A stretch of 62,949 bases of DNA, the filler included. It is 7 parts of 7 records of this genome, joined end to end, with 100 filler letters (N's around TTAATTAATTAA, not from the genome) between each part and the next. Parts side by side here need not be neighbours in the genome. Positions count along the whole stretch, not along the records: positions 45,879 to 57,748 come from SRR31156797_17151; 6 more parts are not named here. One strand, written 5' to 3'. Below, one piece after another: positions 12,418-62,217 of this stretch. Position numbers and translations under genes: made by a program. The notes below the pieces were generated by a model, which saw nothing but the letters and a program-made list of their open reading frames with translations, did not search any database and had not been told where the DNA came from. How positions within the stretch are numbered: the first letter of the stretch is position 1; each line of letters begins with the position of its first letter.

Positions 12418-13022
12418 ATTTAAAAGTAGCAGCAACAGATCATTCTTCCATAGCGCCATCAGTCACAATGTCAAGCATATTCCATCAGTTGGTTGCAGTA
12501 AGCCCGGATCGGATTTTCCCTCGGGGGCATGGCGTCAAAATGGTCACATATAGCCCTTACTTTTTGACAAAAATGTATATTATTGCATGCTATAATTGAC
12601 ATATGCGGCGTTTCCATATAAAATGCTTCAGAAGAAAAAAGCGCCCTTCGGCATCCGGTTTTCCCTCCACCCCTTATCCTTTACTGACGGTGTTTTGTCC
12701 ATTCCCCTCTATGCCGTTGAAGCCATGCCCGTCTTGATATCACAGGTTTCGTCTTTCTCTCTGCAAAAATAACGTCAGTATCTCCAAGCATTGTTGCCCG
12801 CCATAAAAAATCAGAAATCTTTGCGGCCGGCACTGGTTCAGTTGAATAGGTGTTAAAAGCATTTTAAGCTAAACAAGTTATATCAATTGTGCGCTGAAAA
12901 GTTTTTTGGGGGTGAGACCGCTTTCTATCACCCCTAAATTAACCGCAGGCACCTCTTTGGTTGTAAAATGAACTCTTACTCAAGTTTGACAGCTAAAAAG
13001 AGATTATTCTGTCATTACAGGT

Positions 13023-45878: not shown

Positions 45879-46051
45879 TGGGAAGAAGGCGCTTGTGCTG
45901 GTTTTACCAGTAATGGAGTTAAATTACCACCGCCAAGTTTTACGTTTTGATTAGAAAAGTTGTAATATTGTAAAACGTAAAAGTTGGCTCAGTGCAGTTT
46001 TGAAGGTTTGTACAAGCAAATCTTCCTCCCACTAGCCCAAACGTTAGCTGC
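45879..46051 (+). repeat. attC-like long imperfect palindrome (5' end cut), ending in core-like GTTAGCTGC
   Basis: Nested arms GGGAAGAAG/CTTCCTCCC, GCTTGTGC/GTACAAGC and GCCAAGTTTTACGTTTT (45932-45948)/AAAACGTAAAAGTTGGC (45972-45988), then AAAC-GTTAGCTGC at 46043-46051. Confidence 0.6.
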
Positions 46052-46364
46052 AAGTGTAAAGAAGAAACTGCACCATTGAAACCTGAATATAAAATTTGAA
46101 AAACCGTATAGAAAATATAGGCACATTGATTGAAAGTTGGTTAAAGAAAGAATTAGTTTTTACTCACTATGATATTAATTTTATAGTTGTTTGTGATTTT
46201 CAATTACAAATCGCACATGCCGACGCACAAACCAAAATTTGCAAAAAAAAGTGCCACCGACCGAAGTTAGGTTACAATCACCTTTATTCAAAAATTCAAA
46301 TAGTGAGTAATTTTTACCAACGCACAAGCTTCAAAACTGAAACTTAATCTGTATTTTTGAAAAT

Positions 46365-47387
46365 ATGAATTATCTAAAAAAAAATATTAATAATTGGAAA
46401 ATCGGAGTTGCATTTTCAGCTTTGTTACCCTTATTTGGGGTTTTAAGCCAATCTGAAAATAAAATGAACCTTGCTATGCAAAGCTTTCTATTAGTTTGGC
46501 TAGGTTCGTTCTTATTTTTAATAATTGCATGGTTCTTAAATTCAAAGCTCGCTTCTTTGTTCCTTAGTTCACCTAAGAAATGGAATTTAGCCAGTAAAAT
46601 CCTTATTATTTCACTTTCCAATGGCCTTCTGCTATCTCTATTAATCTTTCTTAATTCTGTAGGAGGTGAAAGTGTTAACAATAACAGGGAAATCAATTTT
46701 GTTGTAATGTTCTTCAGAGGAGGTGTTGCCGTTGCAATGATTTATCTAATTCAATTTATATTGAATCTAAATGCCCGAAATCAATCTGTTTCAATGCAAA
46801 ACCAAATGCTAAAAACCGAAAATATTCGTGCGCAATTTGAGATACTAAAACAACAAATAAGCCCTCACTTTTTATTTAATTCTCTTTCCACATTGCGCTC
46901 TATGATACGCTCTTCAAATAAAAATGCGGAGAACTTTGTCATTAAGTTGTCGGATATCTACAGGCTATTGTTGCTCAATAAAGAAAAAGACACTGTTTCA
47001 CTTAAAGATGAGCTTGAACTAATTGATGATTATTCATTTTTGTTATTTGCCAGGTACGAGAACATGTTAACTATTAATATTGATATTCCTGAAAAAATAT
47101 TGAATTACAATATTCCGACCTTTTCTTTACAATTGCTATTAGAAAATTGCGTTAAGCATAATATTGTTTCGAAAGAAAAACCTTTACATGTTAAAATCTA
47201 TGATTCGGGCATTAATAGCATAACAGTCGAGAATAATTTGCAGCAAAAAACACTAGCAGATAATGATTCTGGATTAGGTTTGAAAAACCTGACTAAACGA
47301 TATAATTTATTAGGGGTTCCCGAAGGGGTTAAGATTTTTTCAGATGAATCAGTTTTTCGTGTAAAAATTAAATTACTTGGGCAATGA
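46365..47387 (+). CDS. LytS-type membrane histidine kinase
   Basis: Four TM segments, LKQQISPHFLFNSL, LQLLLENCVKHN, SGLGLKNL. Confidence 0.92.
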   Translation: MNYLKKNINNWKIGVAFSALLPLFGVLSQSENKMNLAMQSFLLVWLGSFLFLIIAWFLNSKLASLFLSSPKKWNLASKILIISLSNGLLLSLLIFLNSVGGESVNNNREINFVVMFFRGGVAVAMIYLIQFILNLNARNQSVSMQNQMLKTENIRAQFEILKQQISPHFLFNSLSTLRSMIRSSNKNAENFVIKLSDIYRLLLLNKEKDTVSLKDELELIDDYSFLLFARYENMLTINIDIPEKILNYNIPTFSLQLLLENCVKHNIVSKEKPLHVKIYDSGINSITVENNLQQKTLADNDSGLGLKNLTKRYNLLGVPEGVKIFSDESVFRVKIKLLGQ

Positions 47388-48148
47388 ATATTTTAATTAT
47401 AGAAGATGAGCCGCATACCGCACAAATATTAAGTGAAATAATAGTGCAAGTTCGTCCTGATTCAATTATTCTAGAAACTTTAGAAAGTATTGAGCAATCT
47501 GTAAAGTATCTTTCTTACGATAAAAACCTGCCCGATTTAATTTTCTCAGACATTCAGCTGGCTGATGGACTTAGTTTTGAAATATTTTCAAAAATACAAC
47601 TGAAATGTCCAATTATATTCTGTACCGCTTTTGACCAGTACACTTTGCAAGCATTTAAAACCAATGGCATTGAATATGTCTTAAAACCTGTAAAGGAAGA
47701 AGATGTGGAATTAGCCTTTACAAAATACGAAACACTGAAAGAATCTTTAAAGCCAGACACAGAAATTATAAACCTGCTAAAAAATACGTTTCAAAAGAAA
47801 GAAAACTATAAAAATTCAATATTAGTTCATGTTAAGGAAAGCTTCATTCCTATTGAAGTGAGTAAAATTGCATTTTTTATTGTTGATACCGAAATTCTTT
47901 ACATCCATACATTCGATAACAAACGTTATCCTGTTTTTAAAGCCATATCTGAAATTGAGGCTTCTCTTGACCCAACAATATTCTTTAGAATTAACAGACA
48001 GGTTCTACTTAGTAAAAAAGCCATTAAAGAAATTCAACCCTACTTTAATCGAAAAGTTATTGTTAAAACGGATTTAAAAATCGAAGAACAACTCATTGTA
48101 AGTCGGTTAAAAGTAACCGAATTTATGAACTGGATAGAACAATCCTAA
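47384..48148 (+). CDS. LytTR-family response regulator
   Basis: IIEDE, SDIQLADGLSF, CTAFDQY, YVLKP, FFRINRQ, VSRLK. Confidence 0.95.
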   Translation: MNILIIEDEPHTAQILSEIIVQVRPDSIILETLESIEQSVKYLSYDKNLPDLIFSDIQLADGLSFEIFSKIQLKCPIIFCTAFDQYTLQAFKTNGIEYVLKPVKEEDVELAFTKYETLKESLKPDTEIINLLKNTFQKKENYKNSILVHVKESFIPIEVSKIAFFIVDTEILYIHTFDNKRYPVFKAISEIEASLDPTIFFRINRQVLLSKKAIKEIQPYFNRKVIVKTDLKIEEQLIVSRLKVTEFMNWIEQS

Positions 48149-48151
48149 ACC

Positions 48152-48184
48152 TGTTCAATTCACCATCCAATTTGTTCAATTCAC
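48152..48184 (+). promoter_or_regulatory. LytTR-type direct repeat TGTTCAATTCAC x2, 21-bp period
   Basis: Identical 12-mers at 48152 and 48173, upstream of the efflux operon. Confidence 0.75.
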
Positions 48185-48249
48185 TTACTTATTGATTTTA
48201 TATCAAGAGTTCTGTATTCATATTTGCATTGAATCAAAATGCATAAAAT

Positions 48250-48738
48250 ATGAAAAAAAGTATTTGTTTAAAATCAATGGTTATTACCATGATTCTTTAC
48301 CTTTCATTATTAGAAGTAAATGCACAGCCTGGTAATATGAATCCACCTGACTTTAATGCAGAAAAAGCTGCAGGTATCTTTAAGTACGATATTGAAAAGG
48401 TGATAAAAAAATTGAAAATCATTGATGATTCTTTAATTGCTAAAGTAACTGAAAGTTTGAACGATTACAACAGTAAAATGAATTCATTGTCCCTATTACA
48501 CTCTACAACATTTCAAGAATTAGAAGCTGATTTCGATAAAAACGTTCAGATTGCCATGAGTAATAGAGATAGGAGTCAAATGGATGGTGTCAAAGCAAAA
48601 ATTCAACGCATTATTCCACCTATTAGAAAGCAAGTGCAGGAATACGAAGAATTGCTTAACAGTAAAATGTCAAATTATCTTACAGAGTCTCAAAATAAAA
48701 AATGGTTGAAATACCAAAACGGTAAAAAAGCTAATTAA
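48250..48738 (+). CDS. Secreted helical protein (Spy/LTXXQ-like)
   Basis: Signal peptide ending VNA-Q, helical body, C-terminal YLTESQNKKW. Confidence 0.65.
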   Translation: MKKSICLKSMVITMILYLSLLEVNAQPGNMNPPDFNAEKAAGIFKYDIEKVIKKLKIIDDSLIAKVTESLNDYNSKMNSLSLLHSTTFQELEADFDKNVQIAMSNRDRSQMDGVKAKIQRIIPPIRKQVQEYEELLNSKMSNYLTESQNKKWLKYQNGKKAN

Positions 48739-48741
48739 GAC

Positions 48742-50052
48742 ATGAAAAAGCAGTTTTTAATAGTGTTTGTTACCATGTTCTTAATGAATACGTCTGACTT
48801 ATATAGTCAACATGTATTTCAATCGGTAGATGAAATTTGGTTGTTTGCAAAAGAAAATAATCCGGATAATTTAATCTACCAACTTCAAGTTGACAAAGCT
48901 CAGAAAGACCAAAAAATTGCCTACAGCTCATTATATCCAAAAATTAATGCAGGTTTAAACAGTCAATATAATCTCGATATAGCGGAAACTCCATTGCCTG
49001 GTGAAATTGTTGGAAGACCGGGAGAAACTGTTTATGCAAAATTTGGTCAGGAATATAGTTACAATGGTGGTATTACATTTAGCAAAACCTTACTTGATTG
49101 GCAATCCATATTTCAATCTAAAATAGCAAAATCAAACACCTCACTTAAAAAAGTTGAGAAATCATTATTTGAGCAGAACCTTAAAGAACAAATAGCTCAA
49201 GTTTATTATGCTACATTAACAGCACAAGAAGCCGTTGAAAATGCAAATAAAGATTTAACACTTGCAGATTCAATACTTCAAATAGCTTCAGATAGATTTA
49301 ATGAAGGATATATTGATGCTATATCTTTCAATCAGGCTAAAATAAACCGGAATAATGCTTTTGATAAACTGGAACAAAACAAACAATATCTGTTTGAAAA
49401 CAAAATCAATCTGAAAACATTATTAGGTCTTTCAACTGCTGATAAACTGGAATTAAAGGAACAAATTGATTTAAACGACAACAGCACCATCGAAACAGTT
49501 TCGTCGAATGACTTAAATACTAAGTATTATGCCCTTCAGCTTGAAAATGCTTCTATGGAAAGCAAAAAAGCATTATCCCGCTTTTCGCCTAAGCTCGATT
49601 TAATCTATTATTGGGGTGCTGTTCAATATCAACAGGATTTTAAACTTTCACTAAATTCCAACGATTGGCAACCAAATAGCTACATTGGGCTTAATATATC
49701 TATACCATTATTTACTGGTTTTGGTAATAAAAATCAATACAGTTCTGCTAAAATTTCACAAAACATTGCACAGCTAAATTACGAAGAAGAAATCCGTAAA
49801 TCTTCGCTTAATGATAGTGTCCTGTTTAATAATTATTTATCATCAGGTAAATTGGTGTACATAGCCGAAGAAAATCTAAAAATTGCTGATGAAAACGTAA
49901 AGCTTGCATATAGTAAGTACTCGGAAGGACTTATAAGCCTTGATAATTACCTGTCGGTATATGATGATTATCTTGCTGTTGAAAGTCAATATTTCAGCAG
50001 GCTTTCAGACTATCTTATAAATAAAGCAATTATTCTATCACGAAATTCTTAA
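48742..50052 (+). CDS. TolC-family outer-membrane factor
   Basis: AKENNP, LYPKINAG, QVYYATL, IGLNISIPLFTG, YSEGLIS. Confidence 0.9.
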   Translation: MKKQFLIVFVTMFLMNTSDLYSQHVFQSVDEIWLFAKENNPDNLIYQLQVDKAQKDQKIAYSSLYPKINAGLNSQYNLDIAETPLPGEIVGRPGETVYAKFGQEYSYNGGITFSKTLLDWQSIFQSKIAKSNTSLKKVEKSLFEQNLKEQIAQVYYATLTAQEAVENANKDLTLADSILQIASDRFNEGYIDAISFNQAKINRNNAFDKLEQNKQYLFENKINLKTLLGLSTADKLELKEQIDLNDNSTIETVSSNDLNTKYYALQLENASMESKKALSRFSPKLDLIYYWGAVQYQQDFKLSLNSNDWQPNSYIGLNISIPLFTGFGNKNQYSSAKISQNIAQLNYEEEIRKSSLNDSVLFNNYLSSGKLVYIAEENLKIADENVKLAYSKYSEGLISLDNYLSVYDDYLAVESQYFSRLSDYLINKAIILSRNS

Positions 50053-50058
50053 CACAAA

Positions 50059-51144
50059 ATGAACAAAATTCTTATAATATTATCTATAATCATTGTATTT
50101 ATGTTTTCAGGTTGTAATCAGCAAAAAACAACCCAACCAATGCGAAAACATATTGTAGACGCAGTATTTGCAAGCGGAAGTATAGTTAGTGAAAATCAAT
50201 ATGTAGTTACTTCTCAAACAGATGGTTATCTGAACAAATCTTTTTTAGTAGAAGGAGATTCTGTAAGAAAAGGTCAGATAATCTTCCGTATTGAAAATGA
50301 ATCACAAGCAGAACAACTTGAAAATGCACAGGCAAACTATGCATATTCTAAGTTAAATGTAGCAAACAACTCTCCTGTTTTAGAACAATTAATAGCACAA
50401 AGGCTACAAATAAAAAATAAGCTCGTAACAGATTCATTAAATTTTATTCGTCATCAGAAACTAATTAAATCGGGTGCAGTAAGCCAGGTCGATTATGAAA
50501 AAGCTAAAGTAACATTTGAAAACTCAAAACAGGATTTAATTTCAATAAATAATCAGATTTCTGATACGAAAAATAAACTACAATTAGAAGTTACAAAAAG
50601 CAAGGCAAACCTGGCATCGCAACAAAATACGTCATCTTTTTATAACATTAGTAGCAAAGTTGATGGTGTTATTCTTCAGATTCATAAAAAAGAAGGTGAG
50701 CTTGTTAAAAGAGCAGAACCAATAGCCGAAATTGGGTCAGGTACGATATTAGCCAAACTGTTTATAGTGGAAGAAGATATAAATAAATTAATGCTTAATC
50801 AGGATGTGTTTATTGAGTTAAATACCGAGAAAAGCAAAAGCTATAAAGCAATCCTTTCGAAAATTTATCCCTATTTCGATGCTCAGGAACAATCTTTTAT
50901 TGCAGAAGCCCAATTTGTAGATAAAATCAAAAATTTAAAATCGGGAACTCAACTTCAGGCTAATATAAAAACGAATGAGAAATCAAATGCTTTGGTAATA
51001 CCTGCTGAGTATCTTTTACCAGGTGATTTTGTACTAACAAAAACTCAACAGAAGATTAAGGTAACTGTCGGTATTCGAACTTCAGAGTGGATAGAAATTC
51101 TCTCGGGTATAGACGAAACATCAATACTTGTTCTTCCAAATTAA
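50059..51144 (+). CDS. Efflux periplasmic adaptor (MFP/HlyD), lipoprotein
   Basis: Lipobox FSGC, AVFASG, EGDSVRKGQ, ISSKVDGVI, IEILSG. Confidence 0.9.
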   Translation: MNKILIILSIIIVFMFSGCNQQKTTQPMRKHIVDAVFASGSIVSENQYVVTSQTDGYLNKSFLVEGDSVRKGQIIFRIENESQAEQLENAQANYAYSKLNVANNSPVLEQLIAQRLQIKNKLVTDSLNFIRHQKLIKSGAVSQVDYEKAKVTFENSKQDLISINNQISDTKNKLQLEVTKSKANLASQQNTSSFYNISSKVDGVILQIHKKEGELVKRAEPIAEIGSGTILAKLFIVEEDINKLMLNQDVFIELNTEKSKSYKAILSKIYPYFDAQEQSFIAEAQFVDKIKNLKSGTQLQANIKTNEKSNALVIPAEYLLPGDFVLTKTQQKIKVTVGIRTSEWIEILSGIDETSILVLPN

Positions 51145-51150
51145 CCAAAT

Positions 51151-52398
51151 ATGGCAAAATCAGTTAATATACAAATTGCTGGTGTACATCTTACTTCAAA
51201 GATATGGCAAACCGTTGTAGCTGTGCTCGGGGTTACATTTGGGGTATCAATGTATATTTTCATGAATAGTTTCATGAATGGCGTAAACAAAACACAAGAT
51301 GACCTTGCATTTAGTGCTTTATCACATATTCGCATATATAATCATGACAATAACCATTCATTTAATCCTATAGAGAGTCAATACGACAATTCAACAACAA
51401 TATTTAACATTAGCAACAGAAGAAACATTCAGTATACCAGTGGTATTAAGAATTCTTCATTAATAGTTTCTTTAGTAAAAAAACAGGAAGAAGTAGTTGC
51501 TGTTGCACGTCAGATTAACCTAAGCGTATTCTTTAGAAGTGGTTCCAAAAAAATAAATGGACGAATTTCGGGTGTTGAATTAGAGCCTGAAGACAAATTG
51601 TTTAAAAGTTCAGAAACTATTACCGAAGGCAATTGGAACAATCTGTTAACCTATAAATCAGGAATAATTATAGGGAAATTGCTTGCAGAAGATTTGGGGT
51701 TGCATGTAAATAACAGTGTTAACCTGCTTACTTCCGAAGGCATTTCAAAAAATTATATCGTTGTTGGCATATTCGAAAGTTCAATCAAGGATGTTGATAA
51801 AAGTAAAGCATATTTGAATATTGCTGCAGCTCGCCAATTACAAGGCGAAAATTCCGATTATGCAAGCGATATCATGATTAACGTTAAGGACAAGGATAAT
51901 ACAGCGGGGGTTGTCAAGTCCCTTAAGACAATTATTCCTTACCAAATTGAGTCATGGCAAGAAGCAAATGAGCAAATGGTGGCAGGTGCATCATTAAGAA
52001 ACATCATAGCAATAGCCGTTTCGTTCACCATTTTACTTGTGGCTGGTTTTGGTATTTACAGCATTATGAACATGACGATAAATGAAAAGATTAAAGAAAT
52101 AGCCATCTTAAAAGCAACTGGTTTTTCAGGTAAGGATATAAAATCAATATTCCTTGCACAAGCCGGTGCAATTGGACTATTTGGTGGTTTATTAGGGGTT
52201 TTGCTTGGTTACTTAATATCCTTACTAATTAACCAGGTACCATTTACAGTTGCTGGTTTGAAAACTCTACCTATATATTTTAGGGCTCAGGATTTTATTC
52301 TTGCAGTTATTTTTGGGGTATTAACTACGCTTATTGCCGGTTATTTACCATCGAGAAAAGCATCCAAAGTGGACCCTGTAGCTATAATTCGTGGATAA
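51151..52398 (+). CDS. MacB/LolC-E type ABC permease
   Basis: VAVLGVTFGV, VAGFGIYSIMNM, KEIAILKATG, PSRKASKVDPVAIIR. Confidence 0.92.
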   Translation: MAKSVNIQIAGVHLTSKIWQTVVAVLGVTFGVSMYIFMNSFMNGVNKTQDDLAFSALSHIRIYNHDNNHSFNPIESQYDNSTTIFNISNRRNIQYTSGIKNSSLIVSLVKKQEEVVAVARQINLSVFFRSGSKKINGRISGVELEPEDKLFKSSETITEGNWNNLLTYKSGIIIGKLLAEDLGLHVNNSVNLLTSEGISKNYIVVGIFESSIKDVDKSKAYLNIAAARQLQGENSDYASDIMINVKDKDNTAGVVKSLKTIIPYQIESWQEANEQMVAGASLRNIIAIAVSFTILLVAGFGIYSIMNMTINEKIKEIAILKATGFSGKDIKSIFLAQAGAIGLFGGLLGVLLGYLISLLINQVPFTVAGLKTLPIYFRAQDFILAVIFGVLTTLIAGYLPSRKASKVDPVAIIRG

Positions 52399-52399
52399 T

Positions 52400-53077
52400 A
52401 TGGAAAATAATACATCATTAACAATAAGAAACCTTGTTAAATATTTTTATGAACCTGAAACATTTCAGGTACTAAAGGGTGTTTCTTTTCAAGTTAAAAA
52501 GGGGGAATTCCTTTCCATTGTTGGAAAGTCGGGTTCAGGTAAGTCTACATTATTATATGTGCTTTCAACTATGGATACCGATTATGAAGGAATGCTTCAG
52601 ATTAACGGTGATTTAATAACCGGGCAAAGTCAAAATCAGTTAGCAGCATTCCGGAATGAACATATTGGTTTTGTATTTCAATTTCACTATTTACTTCCTG
52701 AATTTTCGTGCTTACAAAATGTGATGTTGCCTGCCTTAAAATTGGGTAAATATTCAACAAAAGAAATTGAACACAAAGCCTATGAAAGCCTTCGACTGCT
52801 CGACATAGAAGACCAGGCACTAAAAAGTGCCAATAAACTATCAGGTGGTCAGCAACAAAGAGTTGCTATTGCCCGGGCACTTATTAACAATCCTTCAATT
52901 ATTATGAGCGATGAACCAACTGGGAATCTTGATTCAAAAAATACTCAGGCTGTACTTGAAATCTTTAAAGGATTGGCAAAAGAAAATGGACAAACCATTA
53001 TCTGTGTAACCCACGATAAAGATTTTGCAAATAAAACAGACCGCACTATTGAAATGGCAGATGGCTTAATTATTTAA
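52400..53077 (+). CDS. LolD-like ABC ATP-binding protein
   Basis: GKSGSGKST, GFVFQFHYLL, LSGGQQQRVAIARAL, DEPTGNLD, VTHD. Start ATG 52400 or GTG 52391. Confidence 0.94.
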   Translation: MENNTSLTIRNLVKYFYEPETFQVLKGVSFQVKKGEFLSIVGKSGSGKSTLLYVLSTMDTDYEGMLQINGDLITGQSQNQLAAFRNEHIGFVFQFHYLLPEFSCLQNVMLPALKLGKYSTKEIEHKAYESLRLLDIEDQALKSANKLSGGQQQRVAIARALINNPSIIMSDEPTGNLDSKNTQAVLEIFKGLAKENGQTIICVTHDKDFANKTDRTIEMADGLII

Positions 53078-53088
53078 CTATCTAAACA

Positions 53089-53337
53089 ATGAAAGAAAAA
53101 GTAAGCAATCGATGCAAAATATTAATTACAAAAAAAATTGCTGATTCTTTATCTGAAAATGAGCAAATCGAATTAAATGAATATTTGACTTCGAATAGCA
53201 TGGCAAAGCAATATTTTGCAGAACTAAAAAGAATTTGGGATTTGACAAACACACTGGTTCCAATAAGTATTTTCAAAACTGATGTATTTGAAGAATGGTT
53301 GAAATTCATAGAATTTCTAAAATCCCAAAAATCCTAA
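53089..53337 (+). pseudogene. Orphan FecR-like anti-sigma N-terminal fragment
   Basis: LITKKIADSLSENEQIELNEYL...FAELKRIWD...VFEEWLKF resembles FecR N-termini. It stops where a TM would begin, and no sigma gene is nearby. Confidence 0.45.
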
Positions 53338-53343
53338 ATTTAT

Positions 53344-54108
53344 ATGAAAAACAAAAAAAGCTTACGTCAATTATACAACTTACTTATATCATTAATCCCA
53401 TTTGTTTTTATGCTCTTTTTAAACAATACTCTTTTTGCTCAAGACTATGAATGGGAAATTGACAGAATCAATAGAAGAGAACGAGAAAAAAAGCGAAAAC
53501 TTGATTCCCAAATGGTTCACTTAAAAAACAACTGGCAATTATCTTTAAGCTATGGACAGTGGTTTTTCTTAAATTCAGCTAAATCCAATGAAGAAAACAT
53601 CTTGGATTTCCCAATAAATATGGGAGCTTGGAACTTGTCATTTTCCAGATACTTTTCAGAATCTATTTCTGTAAATGCTAATGTTGGCATAAATATTAAT
53701 AAGATTGAGCCTGAACCCGATTACAATTCTGTCTTGAGTGGTGAAGATGTTGATATTGAAGGAGGTGGATTAACCTTTATTCCTCTAAGTATTGGAGTTG
53801 ATTACTTTTTCATGAAGCAAAAGTTCCGTCCATTCCTCGGAATTGGTATTGGTTCTGTTTCTGCAAAATCAAAATTCGTTGAAGGTGCTGGTAATATAAA
53901 TGATGGTATTAATAAAGAAGAGCTGGAATTTAGTAGCAAAGCTCCTTTTGTAGAAGTATCAACAGGTTTTGTTTATCGCACTGGAGAAAACGTTCAGCTT
54001 GGATTGAATTGCGACTATGTTCATTCAAAAGGCTTCGGTGAAAATATAGGCTGTTATAAAAGCTTTACTGGATTAAAAATATCAGCCGTTTTTTCTATTG
54101 TCTTTTAA
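53344..54108 (+). CDS. OmpW/OmpA-like small outer-membrane beta-barrel
   Basis: Signal peptide, FIPLSIGVDYFF...FRPFLGIGIG, C-terminal ISAVFSIVF. Confidence 0.7.
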   Translation: MKNKKSLRQLYNLLISLIPFVFMLFLNNTLFAQDYEWEIDRINRREREKKRKLDSQMVHLKNNWQLSLSYGQWFFLNSAKSNEENILDFPINMGAWNLSFSRYFSESISVNANVGININKIEPEPDYNSVLSGEDVDIEGGGLTFIPLSIGVDYFFMKQKFRPFLGIGIGSVSAKSKFVEGAGNINDGINKEELEFSSKAPFVEVSTGFVYRTGENVQLGLNCDYVHSKGFGENIGCYKSFTGLKISAVFSIVF

Positions 54109-54153
54109 CTTCATAGAAAGATAACGGTTCACTAATTATTTTAATAATCAACT

Positions 54154-54186
54154 TGTTCAATTCACCCCCTGTTTTGTTCATCTGAC
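54154..54186 (+). promoter_or_regulatory. Second LytTR-type direct repeat (TGTTCAATTCAC / TGTTCATCTGAC, 21-bp period)
   Basis: Same 12-mer and spacing as 48152-48184, upstream of the TonB receptor. Confidence 0.7.
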
Positions 54187-54262
54187 TGAGTTTTCAATAT
54201 ATAATTAGGCTATCACCCATTAGTTTTGAACTAAAACTATTAAGTAAAGAAATCTACAAATA

Positions 54263-56590
54263 ATGAAAAGAAAAGTATTGTTGATAACAATTTTACTATG
54301 TTTATTTCTGGTGAATGCATATTCACAGGAAAAATATACTATTAGTGGTATTATTTCAGATGCCGAAACAGGCGAAACAATGATTGGAGCTACAATTTCA
54401 GTTAAGGAACTAGCTGCAACAGGAACAATAACTAATGCATATGGTTACTACTCTCTATCCATCCCTAAAGGAGAATACACAGTTATTTTTAGTTATATAG
54501 GTTATAAGTCGATTAAAAAAATAATTAATTTGAATGAGGATAAGCGACTAGACTACAAATTATCACCTGATTCAGAAACTTTAGAGGAGGTTGTTATAAT
54601 AGGAAAAAAGAAAAATGAAAACATTACATCTGAAGAAATAGGAATTGAGAAATTAAAACCACGAGAAATAAAAAAGATTCCTGTTCTATTTGGTGAGCAA
54701 GATGTTATTAAAACACTTACATTAACTCCTGGCGTAAAAACTTCAAGTGAAGGTAGTGGTGGAATGTTTGTGCGTGGTGGTAATAACTCCCAAAACCTTG
54801 TTCTTTTAGATGAAGCTACAGTTTATAATTCAAATCATTTAATGGGATTCTTTTCTACTTTTAATAGCGATGCCATAAAAGATCTTACACTTTATAAAGG
54901 AACAGCACCTAGCCAATATGGTGGTCGTATTTCTTCTGTAATGGATGTTAAAATGAACGAAGGGAATAATCAAAAATATCATATAGGTGGTAGTATAGGA
55001 TTAATATCTGCAAAAGCTAATATAGAAGGCCCAATTGTAAAGGATAAAGGTTCTTTTCTAATTACTGGTAGAAGGACATATGCCGATATGTTTCTAAAAC
55101 TTTCTTCTGATGAATCATTGAATAATAACCAATTATATTTTTATGATATAAATGCTAAAGCAAATTATAAAATCAATCAAAATAATAGAGTTTTCTTATC
55201 AGGTTATTTGGGTAGAGATTATTTCAATATTCAGGATATGTTTGGTTTGGATTGGGGCAATATAACAGGTACGTTAAGATGGAATCATATTTGGAATAGT
55301 AAGCTATTTAGTAATACATCACTTATTTATTCCGATTACGATTATAAAGTTTCAATAATGAATGAAGGAGATGATGATTTTAGCTTAACTTCAGTTATTG
55401 GCAATGTTAACCTAAAGCAAGATTTTCAATACTTTATGAGTGATAAAAGCTCGCTGGCATTTGGTTTATATGGAAGGTATAATACTATTACACCAGGTCA
55501 GGTAGAGTTTTCTGAAGAGTCAGATTTTAAATCCATTGAATTACAAGAAAAATACACTTTCGAAACAGGTGCATATTTTGGACATGACTGGAAACCTTCA
55601 GAAAAATGGAACATTTCCTATGGTGTCCGGTTAAATGCATTTTATCTTTTAGGTGCAGGTGATTTCTATAATTATACTGACGGAAATGTATCAGATACTT
55701 CAACGTTTAAATCGGGTGAAATAGTCCAAAGCTATTATAATTTAGAACCTCGACTAAATATGGCTTATGTATTAAATCAAGCAAATTCATTTAAATTTTC
55801 GTATACCAGGAATACACAAAATCTACACCTGCTTCAAAATTCTAACTCATCAACACCTACTGATATTTGGATATCATCCAGTAACAATGTAAAGCCTGAA
55901 ATTGGCGACCAAATATCTTTAGGGTATTTCCGAAATTTTAATGATAATAAATATCAATTTTCAAGTGAAGTATACTATAAATGGATGCAGAACCAAATTG
56001 ACCTTAAAAATGGTGCAGAGCTGCAAGCAAATGAATTTCTTGAAGGAGAACTATTATTTGGAGACGGAAGGGCATACGGATTGGAATTAATGCTACGTAA
56101 AAAGACTGGTAGATTATCCGGTTGGTTGTCTTATACATTATCTCGAACCGAAAAAAACATTGATGGCATAAACGAAAACAATTGGTATCCGGCTAAACAA
56201 GATGCAACACATGATATTTCTGTTGTTGGTATTTATGATTTAAATGACAAATGGAGTTTATCAGCTACATGGGTATACAATACAGGTAATGCAGTTACTT
56301 TCCCAAGTGGTAAATATGAAATTGATGGTAACGTACAATTTTATTATACCGAAAGAAATGGGTATAGGATGCCAGCTTATCATCGGTTGGATTTAGGTGC
56401 TACATGGAATATTAAAAAGACCGATAAATTTGAGAGTTCACTGAACTTTTCGATATATAATGCTTATGGTCGCAAGAATGCCTATTCCATCGATTTCGAA
56501 GAAGACGAGAACGACCCGACCAAGACAGTGGCAGTAAAAACATATCTTTTTACATACATACCATCAATAACATATAATTTTAAATTTTAA
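54263..56590 (+). CDS. TonB-dependent receptor with N-terminal CarboxypepD_reg-like domain
   Basis: ISGIISDAETGETMIGA, GEQDVIK...PGV, VRGG...QNLVLLD, GRISSV, YHRLD, PSITYNFKF. Confidence 0.93.
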   Translation: MKRKVLLITILLCLFLVNAYSQEKYTISGIISDAETGETMIGATISVKELAATGTITNAYGYYSLSIPKGEYTVIFSYIGYKSIKKIINLNEDKRLDYKLSPDSETLEEVVIIGKKKNENITSEEIGIEKLKPREIKKIPVLFGEQDVIKTLTLTPGVKTSSEGSGGMFVRGGNNSQNLVLLDEATVYNSNHLMGFFSTFNSDAIKDLTLYKGTAPSQYGGRISSVMDVKMNEGNNQKYHIGGSIGLISAKANIEGPIVKDKGSFLITGRRTYADMFLKLSSDESLNNNQLYFYDINAKANYKINQNNRVFLSGYLGRDYFNIQDMFGLDWGNITGTLRWNHIWNSKLFSNTSLIYSDYDYKVSIMNEGDDDFSLTSVIGNVNLKQDFQYFMSDKSSLAFGLYGRYNTITPGQVEFSEESDFKSIELQEKYTFETGAYFGHDWKPSEKWNISYGVRLNAFYLLGAGDFYNYTDGNVSDTSTFKSGEIVQSYYNLEPRLNMAYVLNQANSFKFSYTRNTQNLHLLQNSNSSTPTDIWISSSNNVKPEIGDQISLGYFRNFNDNKYQFSSEVYYKWMQNQIDLKNGAELQANEFLEGELLFGDGRAYGLELMLRKKTGRLSGWLSYTLSRTEKNIDGINENNWYPAKQDATHDISVVGIYDLNDKWSLSATWVYNTGNAVTFPSGKYEIDGNVQFYYTERNGYRMPAYHRLDLGATWNIKKTDKFESSLNFSIYNAYGRKNAYSIDFEEDENDPTKTVAVKTYLFTYIPSITYNFKF

Positions 56591-56594
56591 TATT

Positions 56595-57398
56595 ATGAAA
56601 ATATATAAAAAAACAATAGTATATAATCTTTTAATCGCAGTGATATTATTATCGTCCTGTACAGAAGAAATTGATATAGACCTTAACTCGTCAGATCCGC
56701 AAATTGTCATAGAGGGCAATGTATCAACTAAAGGTGATCCTGTTATTAAGATTACAAAATCAGTAAATTTTGATGAGAGTAATGATTTTCCAAGAGTAGG
56801 AGATGCATTTGTTGAAATATCAGATAATCTTGGTAGTAGTGAAATCCTATTAGAATCCTCTGAAGGTATTTATTCAAGCGATTCTTTTACTGGAGTTGAA
56901 GGCCGAACATACACTCTCAGTATTCAGATAGGTGATAAAACGTTTGAATCTAGTAGCACTGTCCCTAATCAAGTTAGTTTTGATTCTTTAATTGTAAGAA
57001 AAGGTTCTTCACCAGGCTTCCCGGCTGCTCAGGAAAATGATTTATTTTATGAAGTGAGGGTACAGTATAAAGACCCGGTTGATGAGGTAAACTATTACCG
57101 TTTTGTAGAAATTGTAAATAATGAAATCACGAACTCTTATGTCTTTGATGACAGGTTAAATAATGGAGAATTTGTTACCCAACCATTGCTCAACTTCTCC
57201 AGAGAACTTGTCCCTGGTGATGTGTTAGAAATAGAGATGCAGTGTATTGATGAATCGGTTTATGAATATTTCAATAGTTTTGGCAATACGCAAGGAAGTT
57301 CCGCAACACCAGCAAATCCATACACAAATATTATAGGTTCAGAATTGGGATATTTTAATGCACATACCTCGGAAGAAAAGACGCAAATAATTGAATAA
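56595..57398 (+). CDS. DUF4249 lipoprotein (TonB-receptor partner)
   Basis: Lipobox LSSC-TEEIDIDL, IVIEG, DPVDEVNYY, PANPYTNI...LGYF. Confidence 0.85.
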   Translation: MKIYKKTIVYNLLIAVILLSSCTEEIDIDLNSSDPQIVIEGNVSTKGDPVIKITKSVNFDESNDFPRVGDAFVEISDNLGSSEILLESSEGIYSSDSFTGVEGRTYTLSIQIGDKTFESSSTVPNQVSFDSLIVRKGSSPGFPAAQENDLFYEVRVQYKDPVDEVNYYRFVEIVNNEITNSYVFDDRLNNGEFVTQPLLNFSRELVPGDVLEIEMQCIDESVYEYFNSFGNTQGSSATPANPYTNIIGSELGYFNAHTSEEKTQIIE

Positions 57399-57664
57399 AA
57401 GGCTCTTACTTTATTGTAATATAAATTCTATCAAGCTCACAGACGTAAGCACATTTGCAAGCCCACACGAGTCAAGGCTTAAACTAAAGGCATGCAAAAG
57501 AGCTTCCGCCTCTCCAGCCCGAGTAACCGCTTTCTGGGGCGGCTTTAGGATTGCCCATGCTCAAAAAACAAAATAAATTTTTGCTTTGTGGATAGGTTGG
57601 TGCAGATTAGTGACGATTAAAAAATACTAAAGAGCTGATAAACAAACAGTATTGAATAACACCA

Positions 57665-57748
57665 GCCCCTAACAACGGCGAATAAAGCAAAGACGGCCAG
57701 TGCAGTTCGTATGTTGTAGTTTTAATTTAACCCCGCCAAAACTTCGTT
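57665..57748 (+). repeat. Start of a second attC-like site (inverse-core-like GCCCCTAAC), cut by the contig edge
   Basis: GCCCCTAAC at 57665-57673. Its interior TTAATTTAACCCCGCCAAAACTTCGTT resembles TTAAATTACCACCGCCAAGTTTTACGTT inside the first site. Confidence 0.55.
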
Positions 57749-57848: not shown

Positions 57849-58861
57849 ACGGCAAAAAGCGATACGGTCGCGATCTGCACGTCGTTGCCCGGCGGCAGTC
57901 CGCTGATATCCAGGTCCTCCACGGTGACACAGATCTGGGTCGTCACCTCACCGGGGCCGACGGTGTCGGGATCGAGCGTGCCCGACCAGGTTCCGCCGAC
58001 GCCGGCGCCCGGCGTGATCTCAACCGAGAGCAGGGCCCGGAAGTTCAGTTCCAGCGTTAGCATGGTACAGCCGGAGTAGTCGTTGCCAGCCGTTTTGCCG
58101 AGGACCAGGGCGTTGCCGCCGATGCCAATGACGATCTCGTCCGGCCCGGGTTTGGGTTCAGGCTCGGGGTCGGGATCGGGTTTGGATTCCGGGCAAGGCG
58201 ACAGGATCGGATGGTAGATATCGCCGTCGAGTTGGGGGCAGAGGCGAATCCCGGCCGGTCCGGGTGGGGTGTTGTTGAACAGGCCGTGAACTTGCACCTG
58301 GTCGCCAAAGCCGAGGGCGCCGCCCTGGTTGAGGGCGAGGTAGAGTCCCAGAGGGGCGACGAGATTGTAGGCCTGGCCCTCGTCGGTTTCCAGGTAGATG
58401 CAGCCTTCGAGCCCTTCGCGGATGGTGCCGCACTGATCGAAGTGCCGCCCGAGGAGCATCTGTTGCGGGTCGACCCAGAGCGCCGAGTTCACGGGAAAGA
58501 GCAGGGAGGCGGCGTCGGGGCATCGGGTCAGATCCGCCTTGCCGTTGGCCCAGAAGTCCCAGCTAATCAGGATGTCCCCGGAACCGTCGCTCGGGTCGGC
58601 GCAAACCACGGTGCCGCCGCGGCCCGCCATCAGATCCAGCGAACTGTCCAGAGGGGGGTCCTGGAGCACGACGACCCGTTCGCCCGGCGTGAAATAGTCG
58701 GGCCATACGCCCGCGAGTGTCAGCGATAAGACCTTCGGCGAACCTGGGTTGGCGGAGTCCATTTGGATGGCGATTTTCGGTCCCCGGGCGGGGATATCGG
58801 CTTGGACCGGGATCACTAGCAGGGCCATGATCCCCACGATAAGCATTCCTCGGTGTTTCAT
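57849..58861 (-). CDS. Secreted Cys-containing multidomain hypothetical protein (3'-truncated)
   Basis: AAGGAGG RBS before ATG 58861, signal peptide ending VQA, SH3-like segment (FTPGERVVVL...GTVVC...ILISWD), PDPDPEPEP linker. Confidence 0.75.
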
Positions 58862-59155
58862 GTTGACCTCCTTCTCGACTTGGGACACAGACGTTTACTT
58901 CTGGTCGACCACATGCTCACCTATTAGTATAGTCGTACGGGAGGCCGATTATCAAGTTCATCGGAATGGGTCCCCGATCAGCCCCTTTCTTCCGGCGGTG
59001 ATTCCTGTTGAATCAGCGTCACTGAAATGGTACAATCTGCCCCTGTCTCGGAGATCACACCCCCATCAATCTGCGGTCATGTGCAGGTCTATCCCGAGTG
59101 TTGCCGAGGGGGTGACAGAGAACTGCCCATGGAGATTGTCGCGAGGTTAACGAAG

Positions 59156-60403
59156 ATGAAGCATGTGTTGTTGGTTGGCTTGATTTTGTCGTGTGTTTGC
59201 CCCGGTGCCTGGGGACAGGTTTCGGTCACGGGGTCGTGCGACCAGGCCGGCGGGTGGATGGCCGGCGGGTGGGGCAGCTACAAGGTCACGGTCGCAAACG
59301 CGTCGACCGAGTCTGTCGCCGTCAAGCGTTTCTTCGCGGGCTGGCAAGGACGCGGCGATCGGAAGGATCGTCAGGGGGACGAACTGGATATCGAGATTGC
59401 CGCCGGAGAGAAATGGGTCAAGAGCGAAGTGCGGTACATGTTTCCGGATCTGGCCGAGGCCGCGGGCGAGAAGAGTCCGGTGATGGCCGGTGTGGTCGCG
59501 GTGCAGGTGGCGTCGGATATGCAGGAGATTCCGTTTTCCTTTGCGGTTCCCGTGGCGGTGTTGCCCGAGCCAACGCGGACGATAGAGGGTCGCTACGTGG
59601 GGTTGGAACTGGCGGAGTCTCGCTTCGACGCGTTCGCGCACCTGGAGCGGACGGCGCGCTGGATGGACCAGTGCTATGAGGCCATGGTCGACCTGACCGG
59701 AGGCCGGCCGTACGATGGTAACACAATCACTTTGAAAGAGAGCCCCGAACATCCCTACTGGGCGTATGCGGGGCAGGAGATCATTCTGAACACGCGTTAC
59801 GTCGGCTCGACCCTGGAGGATTTCGATAAGGGCCTGATGTCATTCGGTTGGGTGCATGAGATGGGGCATGATTTCGACGACGGTATCGGCCCGTGGTACA
59901 TCTGGAGCGGTCCGGCAGGGGAATGGCAGGCCAACTTCAAACTGTGCTATGCGGGCGAGACGATCGAAGACCAGTCCTTCCGTTACGCGTGGACGTTCCA
60001 GCCGCCGCATTTTCCGTCACCCGATCGAACCTCAAGACTTACGGGCTATGAGCTGACCGAAAAGATGTTCCTGATGTATGGCGACCGCTACCTGGCCGAT
60101 CCCAACCGGTCGTGGGAGACGCTGGCATCCGATGAGATGCACTCGCTCTTCCAGCGCATCCAGCGCGTGTACGGTTGGGAGATCTACCAGAATTGGTATC
60201 GCACCTATCGCGCTCTCAAGGCCCAGGGCTTCGGGCCGCCCGAGTCCGCGGAGGATAAGATCAACTTGATTGTGGCGATCTTGTCGCGCGAGGCGAAGGT
60301 GGATCTGGTGCCGGTCTTTCAGCAGTGGCGCCTGCCCGTCTCGAAAGAGCAGGTTGCCGCGATGGCGCGGAAATACAAGCTGTGCAGCGAGGAGGAATCC
60401 TGA
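59156..60403 (+). CDS. Secreted M60-like (gluzincin) metallopeptidase
   Basis: Signal peptide from ATG 59156, GWVHEMGHDF...WSGPAGEWQAN (HExxH + E), YGWEIY, DLVPVFQQWRLP. Confidence 0.75.
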   Translation: MKHVLLVGLILSCVCPGAWGQVSVTGSCDQAGGWMAGGWGSYKVTVANASTESVAVKRFFAGWQGRGDRKDRQGDELDIEIAAGEKWVKSEVRYMFPDLAEAAGEKSPVMAGVVAVQVASDMQEIPFSFAVPVAVLPEPTRTIEGRYVGLELAESRFDAFAHLERTARWMDQCYEAMVDLTGGRPYDGNTITLKESPEHPYWAYAGQEIILNTRYVGSTLEDFDKGLMSFGWVHEMGHDFDDGIGPWYIWSGPAGEWQANFKLCYAGETIEDQSFRYAWTFQPPHFPSPDRTSRLTGYELTEKMFLMYGDRYLADPNRSWETLASDEMHSLFQRIQRVYGWEIYQNWYRTYRALKAQGFGPPESAEDKINLIVAILSREAKVDLVPVFQQWRLPVSKEQVAAMARKYKLCSEEES

Positions 60404-60429
60404 GGCGATCCGGCGCGTCGGAGGACGTC

Positions 60430-62088
60430 TCAGGGCTTGACGCTGACATGCCATTCGTCGAGCGTACGCCGCTCCATGGTGAAGGTCAGATCGGTCTGCT
60501 GGGCCACGTGCGCCAGGAGTTGGGCCATCTCGTAGCGATACGTCGTTCCAGGTGTGCGGATCGGGTCCAGTTTCAACGAGAGGTAGTCCGACCATGACAC
60601 GTCCACCTCGGACGACAGAGTGTCATCGACGAATCGTTTCCCGGTCCGGTTGGTGATATGCCGCAGCAGTTGGGCCAGGGTGCCCGATCCGCGGCCCGTA
60701 CAGGTACCACGCTCATCGACGGAACGCTCGGTGAAGAGCTGCACGTCGTTTTCGCCCTGGGCGCCGGGCAGGGGATGGTACTGGAAGATGCCGGTCGCTC
60801 GGGCAATCTGGGCCTCGACACGCCGTCTTTCGAGGGTGATGTTCCGGCCCGTTTCCTGGCGCAGAATGCGCTCCAGGGATGCGAGACGCTCGACCCTGGA
60901 GGCGTCGCGGCGGACGATCCAGTCTCCGGTGAGCCGCAGTTCCAGCAGATGCTCAGGACCACTGAATTCGCCGATGCCGAGTCCGCAGATATAGGGGAGG
61001 ATTTCGGAGAGTTTCAGGAACCCCGTGCCCGTGTAGGAGACGGTTGGGTTGGCCGCATCGTCCCATTGGAAGATGTGAATCGTGTTGTGAAGTGCCGCTT
61101 CCGGTACTTGGCCCGGGTCGATGGCCTCGCCGGCGATAAACTGGCTTCGGGCTGAAGGAGCCACAGGTGCGATGCGCGTCAGCGCCTCGTTCGCATCGAG
61201 GCGATAGACGGCCTCGGAGGCCTTTTGCGCCTGGACGCCTGGACCGAGAGATGGCGACGCCTCGCCGCTGAGGGTCAGGCCGCGCCGGTGATCGACGACA
61301 TAGCGCACCCCGCGAATTTCATCGGCCACCGTGCTGCCGTCCGGTAGCTTCGGCGTCAGCAACCGGTCGAAATCCGGATCGTTGATTGTGACATCCGTGA
61401 ATCGGAGCCTGGGGCCGGGAGACGCCGGTACATGAGCGAATTGGGTCCACACCGCGCTGGGGAACCACAGGCCCGGGCGGATCGCTTTGAACTCAGCTCT
61501 CTCAGCTCGGCGCACTTCGCCCTGGGCGATCATCTCGTGGCGAATGGGCAGATATCCCCGTTTCGGATCGAGGACCCTGGCCATGACCGCTCCGGGGCCC
61601 AGGTGTGTCTCCAGATAGCAGCGTCCATCCTCAGTCGGCGCGACGCTGATCCGCGCTTCGCTGGCCAAGGCCTGTTTCAACTCACTGATCACAGATCCGC
61701 CAAGGTAGCCGGAGGCGACGTTGCCGCGGCCGCTCTCGACGTGTCTGCCCGGGAAGATGGTGGCGGAATGGATCACGGTTCCCGTCGGTTTGATACGTTC
61801 ATGCACTTGAATCGTCCGCGTGCCGTCCCAGATGAGGCTGGTCGCATTCCCATTGTCGTCGATCTCTCTGATGCGGCCGCGGCCCTGACGGTTGTAGGCG
61901 ATGCGCTTCTCTATGCCACCATTGATCAGCGTGCACTGGTAATTCGAGATGGTGGCGAGTCGCTTGCGGATCTGCTCGAGCACGAAACGCGGGTCGTTGG
62001 GGTCGCCGTCCTGTCGGGCGGTGGCTGATGGGGCCAGCGCTGAGCCCAGACAGACCAGCAAAAAAGTTCGTTGTACACACAGCGACAT
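60430..62088 (-). CDS. Secreted two-domain hypothetical protein (LolA-like N-part; C-terminal domain shared with 62218-62949)
   Basis: Signal peptide, LDPKRGYLP...GLWFP...INDPDFD, then VYRLDANEAL, GDWIVR, RFVDDT, QTDLTF. Confidence 0.75.
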   Translation of the reverse strand: MSLCVQRTFLLVCLGSALAPSATARQDGDPNDPRFVLEQIRKRLATISNYQCTLINGGIEKRIAYNRQGRGRIREIDDNGNATSLIWDGTRTIQVHERIKPTGTVIHSATIFPGRHVESGRGNVASGYLGGSVISELKQALASEARISVAPTEDGRCYLETHLGPGAVMARVLDPKRGYLPIRHEMIAQGEVRRAERAEFKAIRPGLWFPSAVWTQFAHVPASPGPRLRFTDVTINDPDFDRLLTPKLPDGSTVADEIRGVRYVVDHRRGLTLSGEASPSLGPGVQAQKASEAVYRLDANEALTRIAPVAPSARSQFIAGEAIDPGQVPEAALHNTIHIFQWDDAANPTVSYTGTGFLKLSEILPYICGLGIGEFSGPEHLLELRLTGDWIVRRDASRVERLASLERILRQETGRNITLERRRVEAQIARATGIFQYHPLPGAQGENDVQLFTERSVDERGTCTGRGSGTLAQLLRHITNRTGKRFVDDTLSSEVDVSWSDYLSLKLDPIRTPGTTYRYEMAQLLAHVAQQTDLTFTMERRTLDEWHVSVKP

Positions 62089-62173
62089 CGATTCTCCTCT
62101 CCTATGTTGTGATCCACCACGTGCGGCCCCAGACCCATTGACGCGGGGTTTGGATGCCCCCCTGGAGGCGGTG

Positions 62174-62204
62174 TCGCGATCGCGCCAATTATGCGCGATC
62201 GCGA
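62174..62204. repeat. 12-bp inverted repeat TCGCGATCGCGC / GCGCGATCGCGA
   Basis: Read directly, just downstream of the 62218 stop on the minus strand. Confidence 0.6.
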
Positions 62205-62217
62205 ATCTGGCGTCACG

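Follow-up and report, generated by a model that had tools for sequence, protein, structure and literature searches.

Integron cassettes usually consist of one promoterless gene under about 1 kb, and classical attC sites are 57-141 nucleotides (nt) long. Some mobile elements home to attC, namely those of the IS1111-attC group of insertion sequences (IS) and the group IIC-attC introns, and there are IS91-family members with an upstream tyrosine recombinase gene. Here we describe a whole contig of 11,870 nt (GC 32%) at positions 45879-57748 of a 62,949-nt window, the window being the entire stretch of DNA that was analysed. We consider it likely that this contig is a single, unusually large gene cassette of a Bacteroidota integron-like system, with attC-like sites at both ends.

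Bacteroidota are listed among the phyla having integrons in the available part of PMC8618304, and the available part of the IntegronFinder 2.0 study reports for Bacteroidetes only In0 and one complete integron, that of Salinibacter (PMC9024848). No figure for cassette size was found in the accessible portion of bioRxiv 2024.07.02.601686. A literature search, mostly of titles and abstracts and with supplements excluded, found no description of such a Bacteroidota cassette system.

The window joins seven unrelated contigs, with GC contents of 27-62%, by runs of N with a TTAATTAATTAA linker. The six remaining contigs (1-45778 and 57849-62949; GC 27-62%) have no repeat in common with the end elements of the contig described here. 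The window is a mixed assembly and not one replicon. Because the putative cassette fills exactly one contig, its bounds are contig ends, and the question is whether these are real recombination sites or arbitrary repeats. All 11 open reading frames (ORFs) lie on the + strand, as the earlier note on this DNA had stated, and ARAGORN finds no tRNA in the contig. A partial ORF at the left end, ending ...KLPPPSFTF and a stop, was taken as spurious.

Boundaries of the 11-gene block in the window and its relatives

The elements at the two contig ends are as follows.

45879..46043, + strand: attC-like site of the preceding unit, 3' ~165 nt (fold z -3.5; second copy in sequencing run X1)
46043..46056, + strand: R' core and cassette start GTTAGCTGCAAGTG (same start in Marinilabilia rubra; homologous start GTTGGCAACAAGTG in locus L015)
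57655..57674, + strand: R'' box AATAACACCAGCCCCTAAC plus A, with inverse core CCCTAAC (aligned with the boxes of relatives)
57675..57748, + strand: putative 5' arm (initial 74 nt) of the attC-like site belonging to the cassette itself, truncated by the end of the contig and placed by analogy with complete sites

On the left, the nested palindrome and the core AAAC|GTTAGCTGCAAGT described in the earlier note are both present, the G of the core lying at 46043. The leftmost 182 nt fold as an imperfect palindrome at -29 kcal/mol (z -3.5), none of 200 shuffles being as stable, and a scan of minimum free energy in windows along the contig makes this end its most stable region. The left site, of at least 171 nt, consists of an L'' arm (cut partly by the contig start), a central hairpin, an L' arm, the spacer AAAC and the G of the R' core, and crossover is predicted at G|TT, between 46043 and 46044. 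On the right, ACCAGCCCCTAAC is found at 57661-57673, near the end of the contig, and the cores of the window are GTTAGCT and CCCTAAC. The right arm contains a TTAAxTTAxCxCCGCCAA block whose distance from R'' would be about equal to that in the left site. Two further resemblances between the ends had been claimed: the reverse complement of the right core does match the left core at 9/13 positions, and both ends do contain TTAA-T-A-C-CCGCCAA...CGTT, with a similarity that in each case is not above chance. A repeat finder returned nothing significant between the two contig ends, and the cut right end folds no better than shuffles (z -0.2). When the end elements were searched for in the remainder of the window and in 163 loci, no further copies emerged, the matches being to the conserved tail and leader only. 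We also considered the palindromes as group II intron remnants, in view of a common GTAACYTGATAG string, and rejected this in the absence of Rfam support. Taken alone, the end elements are a real but weak observation, which becomes significant only by comparison with relatives.

To find relatives, species-representative genomes were scanned with the MacB protein, giving 80 loci, designated here by L numbers. In the locus L002, from M. rubra WTE16, the 11 proteins are all encoded, in unchanged order and with 69-94% amino acid identity, in a block of 13-14 genes. DNA homology between the two starts at window position 46038 (L002 3548), that is at AAAC|GTTAGCTGC, and the left site 45879..46043 is otherwise not homologous to M. 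rubra. At the other end strong homology stops at 57595, and a weaker alignment runs on to the YAACA box (AATGAACGCCAGCATACAACA in M. rubra, AATAACACCAGCCCCTAACA in the window). Beyond both limits the sequence is unrelated, with different palindromes on either side. The 11-gene block spans G|TTAGCTGC (46043) to CAGCCCCTAAC (57673), a total of 11,631 nt.

The earlier note had allowed for relatives in which the block has unrelated boundaries; we find the same boundary sites in M. rubra, L015 and L006/L007, and the same boundary at the 3' end in L005/L084. The counterpart of the R'' box is GAACACCAGTTGCCAACA in L005, L015 and L084, GAACGCCAGCATACAACA in M. rubra and GAACATACAACA in L006 and L007. 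All six loci have a palindrome after it, which in M. rubra stands behind an inserted IS91-family element. In complete sites the tail of the block runs into GAACACCAGTTGCCAACA or GAACATACAACA and then into a palindrome of 112-250 nt. Where the far side can be read it ends in GT(T/C), as in L005 (..TATGTATC|GTTGGCAGC) and L015 (..CCGCCAAAC|GTCAGAC); the L084 site has an irregular ending, and that of M. rubra is broken up by the element and an intron.

The genomes with the block are labelled Marinilabiliales, Chitinophaga or other Bacteroidota, and its context differs among them. For example, the blocks of L006 and L007 are 96.1% identical over 6,773 nt, and the DNA upstream differs from exactly the GT(T/C) start. 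A near-identical block with different upstream DNA argues for recent relocation. In L007 the site of the block ends ..GAAC|GTTAGCGGC and is directly followed by a broken tyrosine recombinase gene (9321-9679), of which the C-terminal ~120 amino acids (aa) remain in two frames.

The earlier note had also asked whether the elements are single-copy. In run X1, the likely source, the contig is one record with a depth of 176.7, and a separate 192-nt record with a depth of 175.4 is identical to 45879-46046 at 156/168 positions (93%), followed by 24 unlike letters after AAACGTTA. The left palindrome matches its own reverse complement at only 52/168 positions, so the 192-nt record is a genuine further copy of the left site, with other DNA attached at its core. 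Its existence accounts for the left assembly break. Most of the block, with numerous substitutions, is also present in runs X2 and X3, and X4 has fragments only; the records stop or turn unlike near 46312 and 57692, from which we draw nothing. A metagenome scan returned neither the contig itself nor a longer near-identical one, the best matches being 85-88%.

Site architecture, arrays and recombinases

The 5' starts of the block complement their own 3' boxes in three sequence-distinct lineages, so that the two ends covary. The window pairs 5' GTTAGCTG with 3' CAGC[CCC]TAAC. In L015 the block start ..ACATAT|GTTGGCAACAAGTG matches, at 12/14 positions, the reverse complement of the 3' box of that block, CACCAGTTGCCAAC, the paired ends being 5' GTTGGCAAC and 3' GTTGCCAAC, and L006/L007 pair 5' GT(C/T)GTATGT with 3' ..ACATACAAC. 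Across 14 cassettes (nine from L006, one each from the window, L015, L007, M. rubra and L166), own 5'/3' pairs match at 8.07 of 11 positions compared to 5.82 of 11 for non-own pairs, and none of 20,000 permutations is as high; the L007 cassette corresponds to c4 of L006, so not all of the 14 are independent.

Relatives also place the block in arrays. L006, a metagenome-assembled genome (MAG) labelled Chitinophaga pinensis, has a co-oriented array with 10 sites of 191-288 nt each, counted from R'' box to R' core. Its units are 1171, 1071, 2079, 7198, 1613, 1168, 759, 781 and 3007 nt long, and the 7,198-nt unit is a kinase-to-ATPase version of the block. An RNAalifold consensus of 12 sites from relatives has YAAC/GTTR pairs, a short unpaired spacer and two L stems, with compensatory changes at 13/20 pairs. 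This is the attC-type pairing of R'' and R' with L stems, of which the window offers partial sites only. In L005, for example, TGCCAAC pairs with GTTGGCA around a long stem. As to the bottom-strand folding proposed in the earlier note, the bottom strand is more stable than the top by 1.8-3.4 kcal/mol in 3/3 complete sites. Canonical extrahelical bases were not identified in the sites; a T-G position in the L stem is conserved in 10/12. GTT is likewise found in 10 of the 12 sites, with GTC at L006 site 4 and GTA at the L166 site. The cores do deviate from the integron consensus, as had been noted, fitting GTTRRRY / RYYYAAC at 5-6 of 7 positions. Site lengths (134 nt in L005, 135 in L015, ~112-150 in M. 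rubra and 191-288 in L006) are often above the classical attC range.

The earlier note saw no integrase, and the contig indeed has no recombinase. The search for a tyrosine recombinase that it suggested leads, in relatives, to Xer/IntI-like enzymes without the IntI insertion at the heads of arrays. At C11 of G007, a 411-aa Xer/IntI-like enzyme (172 bits in two stretches against TIGR02249) is directly followed by GTTGGTGGCA, a toxin-antitoxin-like pair ending CTGCCACCAACA and then a site. M. rubra has a homologue of 703 aa on contig C20 (33% identity in the catalytic domain). Small genes in one orientation come after it, as do two ~150-nt sites of the family that is also found by the neighbours of the block on its own scaffold, C25. 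Relatives of 536 aa in G002 and 496 aa in G005 score 220 and 194 bits. These array-linked enzymes thus reach 172-220 bits against TIGR02249, in two stretches that leave out the middle of the model (positions about 177-239). Their position beside array starts indicates that the system has a dedicated recombinase related to IntI without its insertion.

Sites of this kind are themselves occupied by elements of types known to home to attC, in M. rubra and L005, which speaks for the attC-like reading. In M. rubra the block is flanked by two 100% identical direct repeats of 2,463 bp (L002 973-3435 and 16945-19407), each encoding a 273-aa Xer-like tyrosine recombinase and an IS91-family Y2 transposase (NF033538, 426 bits); only these two copies were found in the M. 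rubra genome. Each lies directly behind a CAACA box and is followed by an imperfect palindrome, in two different attC-like sites. CAACA stands at both element borders, and at the start of the scaffold there is a third right end of this kind, in truncated form. In titles and abstracts we found no description of an IS91-type element targeting attC. Group II introns adjoin two further sites on the block's scaffold; the intron loci are L002 1-143 and about 19410-21223, and L005 1-97. Set against L167 6706-6860, an uninterrupted M. rubra site of that family, the M. rubra intron sits 3-4 nt before the GTT core, and in L005 an intron ends about 20 nt after the expected GTT start.

By analogy with integrons, we propose the following mechanism. 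The cassette would comprise 11,631 nt (46043 G to 57673 C) and its own ~190-nt site, cut off by the contig end. On the left it would abut the attC-like site of the preceding unit, and on the right its own site would open with CAGCCCCTAAC-A. An array-head Xer/IntI-like tyrosine recombinase, encoded outside the contig, would act on folded sites in which YAAC pairs with GTTR. The block would then leave as a circle, with a junction ..CCCCTAACA-[site]-..AAACG|TTAGCTGC, and reinsert at another site. The earlier note had proposed an attC-type system using single-stranded DNA hairpins to move a self-regulated operon. Of this, the attC-like sites, the boundaries and the cargo stood; the action of such a recombinase at this locus and the single-stranded hairpin step are presumed from the integron model.

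Points against a cassette, and alternative explanations

A number of observations weigh against the contig being a cassette, and they are taken here together with the alternatives. The best of these, which we nevertheless regard as improbable, is that the palindromes are dispersed repeats of the repetitive extragenic palindromic (REP) type, the miniature inverted-repeat transposable element (MITE) type or the terminator type, and that an ordinary chromosomal operon was assembled into a contig that broke at these repeats, with no cassette recombination. The multi-copy left element would fit, as would a ~55-nt hairpin repeat found at two places, before the kinase gene and behind the last gene, and palindromes that are exchanged independently of the block. 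The two contig ends, moreover, are not significantly similar: their best local alignment scores 23, compared to a mean of 18.9 for shuffles (standard deviation 2.2, maximum 28). Against it stand the covariation of the 5' start of each cassette with its own 3' box, co-oriented arrays that start beside a recombinase, and the sharp limits of homology at GTT and YAACA in independent loci.

Other adverse points concern the window itself. The contig has no complete site and no recombinase, the 3' arm of the right site and the R'' box of the left site being unseen, and Rfam at the contig ends gives, at E <= 1, one sub-threshold, unrelated match only. The ends of the window are complementary at 7/11 positions when ungapped (8/8 if a CCC bulge is allowed) and those of M. 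rubra at 6/11, both being the weaker cases. The 17-mer around the left core has one exact match in M. rubra, and 13 matches with <=3 mismatches compared to 11 for a control; with counts near the control, it is not a repeated core in that genome. None of six related, incomplete genomes (M. rubra and five block-carrying MAGs) has a protein above the TIGR02249 cut-off of 265 bits.

Related operons, too, mostly lack the signature. Based on a narrow regular expression, the 3' box is present at 10 of 54 related operon loci and absent from 44; eight of the ten were inspected by eye and represent six distinct loci. In L013, a Melioribacteraceae MAG, the cargo has another mobile vehicle: the operon is bracketed by direct repeats of ~35 nt, near other recombinases. 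These repeats, TTTTAAGGAAA.GGAAAATA.AGCATACTCA, are at 4745-4775 and 12780-12808, with two Xer-like recombinase genes. From the 44 loci and L013 together it follows that the operon is not intrinsically a cassette and mostly is not one.

Finally, the palindrome does not always follow the block. Behind one and the same block, the palindromes of the window and of M. rubra are unrelated. L084 and L005, with operons 86% and tails 93% identical, are the same through CCAACA and then differ, and L084 shares with L015, whose operon is only 67% identical, a palindrome that is 96% identical (4 differences in 112 nt) and diverges directly before GTT. The L007 site is a hybrid of two L006 site types. These comparisons of sequences indicate that, unlike in the classical model, the site is not always co-inherited with the block. 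Possible causes of the swaps are homogenisation of sites in host arrays, exchange via IS91-family elements at YAAC|A, or a second crossover point. We tentatively entertain the broader idea, and would not put it as high as an even chance, that a Bacteroidota system run by Xer/IntI-like recombinases free of the IntI domain can take up and move self-regulated multi-operon modules of 7-13 kb as single cassettes, with sites exchangeable at YAAC|A and G|TT. Were this true, exchange at both core boxes would imply a chemistry or use of sites other than the classical single bottom-strand exchange.

The second alternative is that the block moves as an IS91-family composite transposon, or by one-ended rolling-circle transposition, and that the contig ends are element ends. 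It draws on M. rubra, where the block lies between two 100% identical direct 2,463-bp copies, the only two found in that genome. Nonetheless we judge it very unlikely. In the window the YAACA box precedes a palindrome arm and not the left end of the element, TTCAGGGCTG; the left palindrome abuts GTTAGC, with no element end; and neither of the two element proteins has a tblastn match in the window. L005, L006, L015 and L084 have these boundaries in the absence of the element, copies at the block ends being found only in M. rubra, where moreover the element is inserted into the sites, directly behind YAAC.

A canonical integron cassette, with an IntI bearing its additional domain, an attI and classical attC sites, would match the attC-like layout and cores and the listing of Bacteroidota among integron-bearing phyla in the available part of PMC8618304, but there is scarcely any probability left for it in view of the 0/6 genomes over the TIGR02249 cut-off, array-linked enzymes at 172-220 bits compared to 265, cores that fit at 5-6/7, sites of up to 288 nt and the finding of only In0 and the Salinibacter integron in Bacteroidetes in the available part of PMC9024848. 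Judging from the enzymes encoded, none of which exceeds the cut-off or, where linked to arrays, has the IntI insertion, the system is not a canonical integron.

Cargo genes and comparison with known systems

The features of the proposed cassette, with ORF families assigned by Pfam, are as follows.

46044..46364, + strand: cassette 5' leader, first ~125 nt conserved with M. rubra (85.6% identity over 125 nt)
46365..47387, + strand: LytS-type sensor histidine kinase (PF06580 His_kinase, E 6.8e-21)
47384..48148, + strand: LytTR-family response regulator (PF00072 and PF04397)
48151..48184, + strand: putative LytTR operator for the exporter operon, made up of two direct 13-nt boxes, CTGTTCAATTCAC and TTGTTCAATTCAC, at a start-to-start distance of 21 nt
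48250..48738, + strand: 162-aa protein, no Pfam family, 69% identical homologue in M. rubra
48742..50052, + strand: TolC-like outer-membrane efflux protein (PF02321 OEP, E 2.3e-47)
50059..51144, + strand: HlyD-family periplasmic adaptor (PF13437 / PF16576)
51151..52398, + strand: MacB-type ABC permease (PF12704 MacB_PCD and PF02687 FtsX)
52391..53077, + strand: ABC ATPase (PF00005)
53089..54108, + strand: 82-aa protein and 254-aa outer-membrane beta-barrel-like protein (weak PF13505, below cut-off)
54153..54186, + strand: second box pair, before the receptor gene (TTGTTCAATTCAC followed at 21 nt by TTGTTCATCTGAC)
54263-56590, + strand: TonB-dependent receptor, 775 aa (PF13715, PF07715, PF00593)
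56595-57398, + strand: DUF4249 protein, 267 aa (PF14054)
57438..57560, + strand: conserved non-coding tail kept in relatives, a ~55-nt hairpin and then a terminator-like CCGC..GCGG T-run hairpin

The kinase start is preceded directly by a TATTTTTG-type sequence, which we take to be a -7 promoter box, and the arrangement ...TTAATTGTATTTTTGAAA..ATG is kept across loci. An 83-aa ORF in the leader (46096-46347) has no Pfam match. Together the exporter genes make up a complete MacB-type tripartite efflux set, with a MacB_PCD+FtsX permease, an ABC ATPase, a membrane-fusion protein and an outer-membrane factor, all above Pfam gathering scores. The 82-aa and 254-aa proteins are both kept in M. rubra, L001, L003 and L005. 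Among the 30 loci listed, the receptor/DUF4249 pair follows the exporter genes at the MacB locus in M. rubra only; in L009 a diverged pair lies inverted ~4 kb downstream. From these domain families, the likely role of the cargo is to sense and to export or resist an envelope-active compound, which would be the substrate of the pump.

Paired direct-repeat operators are typical of LytTR regulators such as AgrA. The 13-mer TTGTTCAATTCAC has three matches with <=1 mismatch in the whole 62.9-kb window, at 48151, 48172 and 54153, and a 3-mismatch copy at 54174 completes the second pair. Of 14 relatives scanned, 12 have the first pair behind the regulator gene; in M. rubra one box precedes the receptor gene (L002 13428). 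The paired boxes fit LytTR operators, to which the regulator would bind. Unlike ordinary promoterless cassettes, this one brings its own control in the form of the kinase and LytTR regulator, which would act through the boxes upstream of a seven-gene run, with the 162-aa gene first and the exporter genes included, and of the receptor/DUF4249 pair.

The tail of ~200 nt (57438-57640) lies 3' of the operon in L002, L005/L086, L006, L007, L015/L092 and L084, whichever gene is last, and its 57438..57560 part is 78-90% identical in these loci. Its structure has 41 consensus pairs, 7 with compensatory changes. The ~55-nt hairpin is of a CACATTTGCAAGCC...GGCTTGCAAAAGAG type; a comparison of its two sequence types gives 7 compensatory pairs, and a related hairpin lies upstream of the kinase gene (window 57438-57560; L002 16700-16830 and 3715-3790; L005 225-290 and 8036-8160). 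It may be a dispersed mini-repeat or a small RNA.

Integrons are seen as gathering small promoterless genes singly. In Bacteroidota they are reported, in the available part of PMC9024848, to be rare. Here a cassette-type site bounds a module of 11 genes (13-14 in M. rubra) that comes with a sensor, a regulator and promoters of its own. Movement of the block as one unit would mean that site-specific cassette capture extends beyond small cargo, that whole regulated envelope and efflux functions can be shuffled between Bacteroidota lineages, and that an attC-type system does not need the IntI-specific domain. With 44/54 related loci lacking the 3' box by the narrow expression, this is also a traceable case of a common chromosomal operon turned cassette.

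The system resembles integrons (class 1, the Vibrio cholerae repeat (VCR) arrays of Vibrio chromosomal integrons, and clusters of attC sites lacking integron integrases, CALIN) in that each unit opens at G|TT and closes with an imperfect palindrome having ..YAAC and GTTR.., that the first bases of a unit complement its own inverse core, and that co-oriented arrays with array-specific site families start beside a tyrosine recombinase. In contrast to integrons, the recombinase lacks the IntI insertion, has a long N-terminal extension and is oriented like the cassettes; the sites are 112-288 nt long, with palindromes sometimes swapped at the YAACA box; and this cassette has 11 ORFs, 11,631 nt, its own two-component system, promoters and operator-like boxes. 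Elements homing to attC find a parallel in the IS91-family element behind YAAC in two M. rubra sites and in the introns 3-4 nt before or about 20 nt after GTT. Unlike a vehicle, however, these are passengers in the sites, and the window contig has none. For the cargo, we take as the comparison system MacAB-TolC pumps under LytS/LytTR-type control with AgrA-like paired operators. The cargo shares with them MacB_PCD+FtsX, an ABC ATPase, HlyD, OEP and two direct repeats with starts 21 nt apart, and differs in that the module is coupled to a TonB receptor/DUF4249 pair with the same box.

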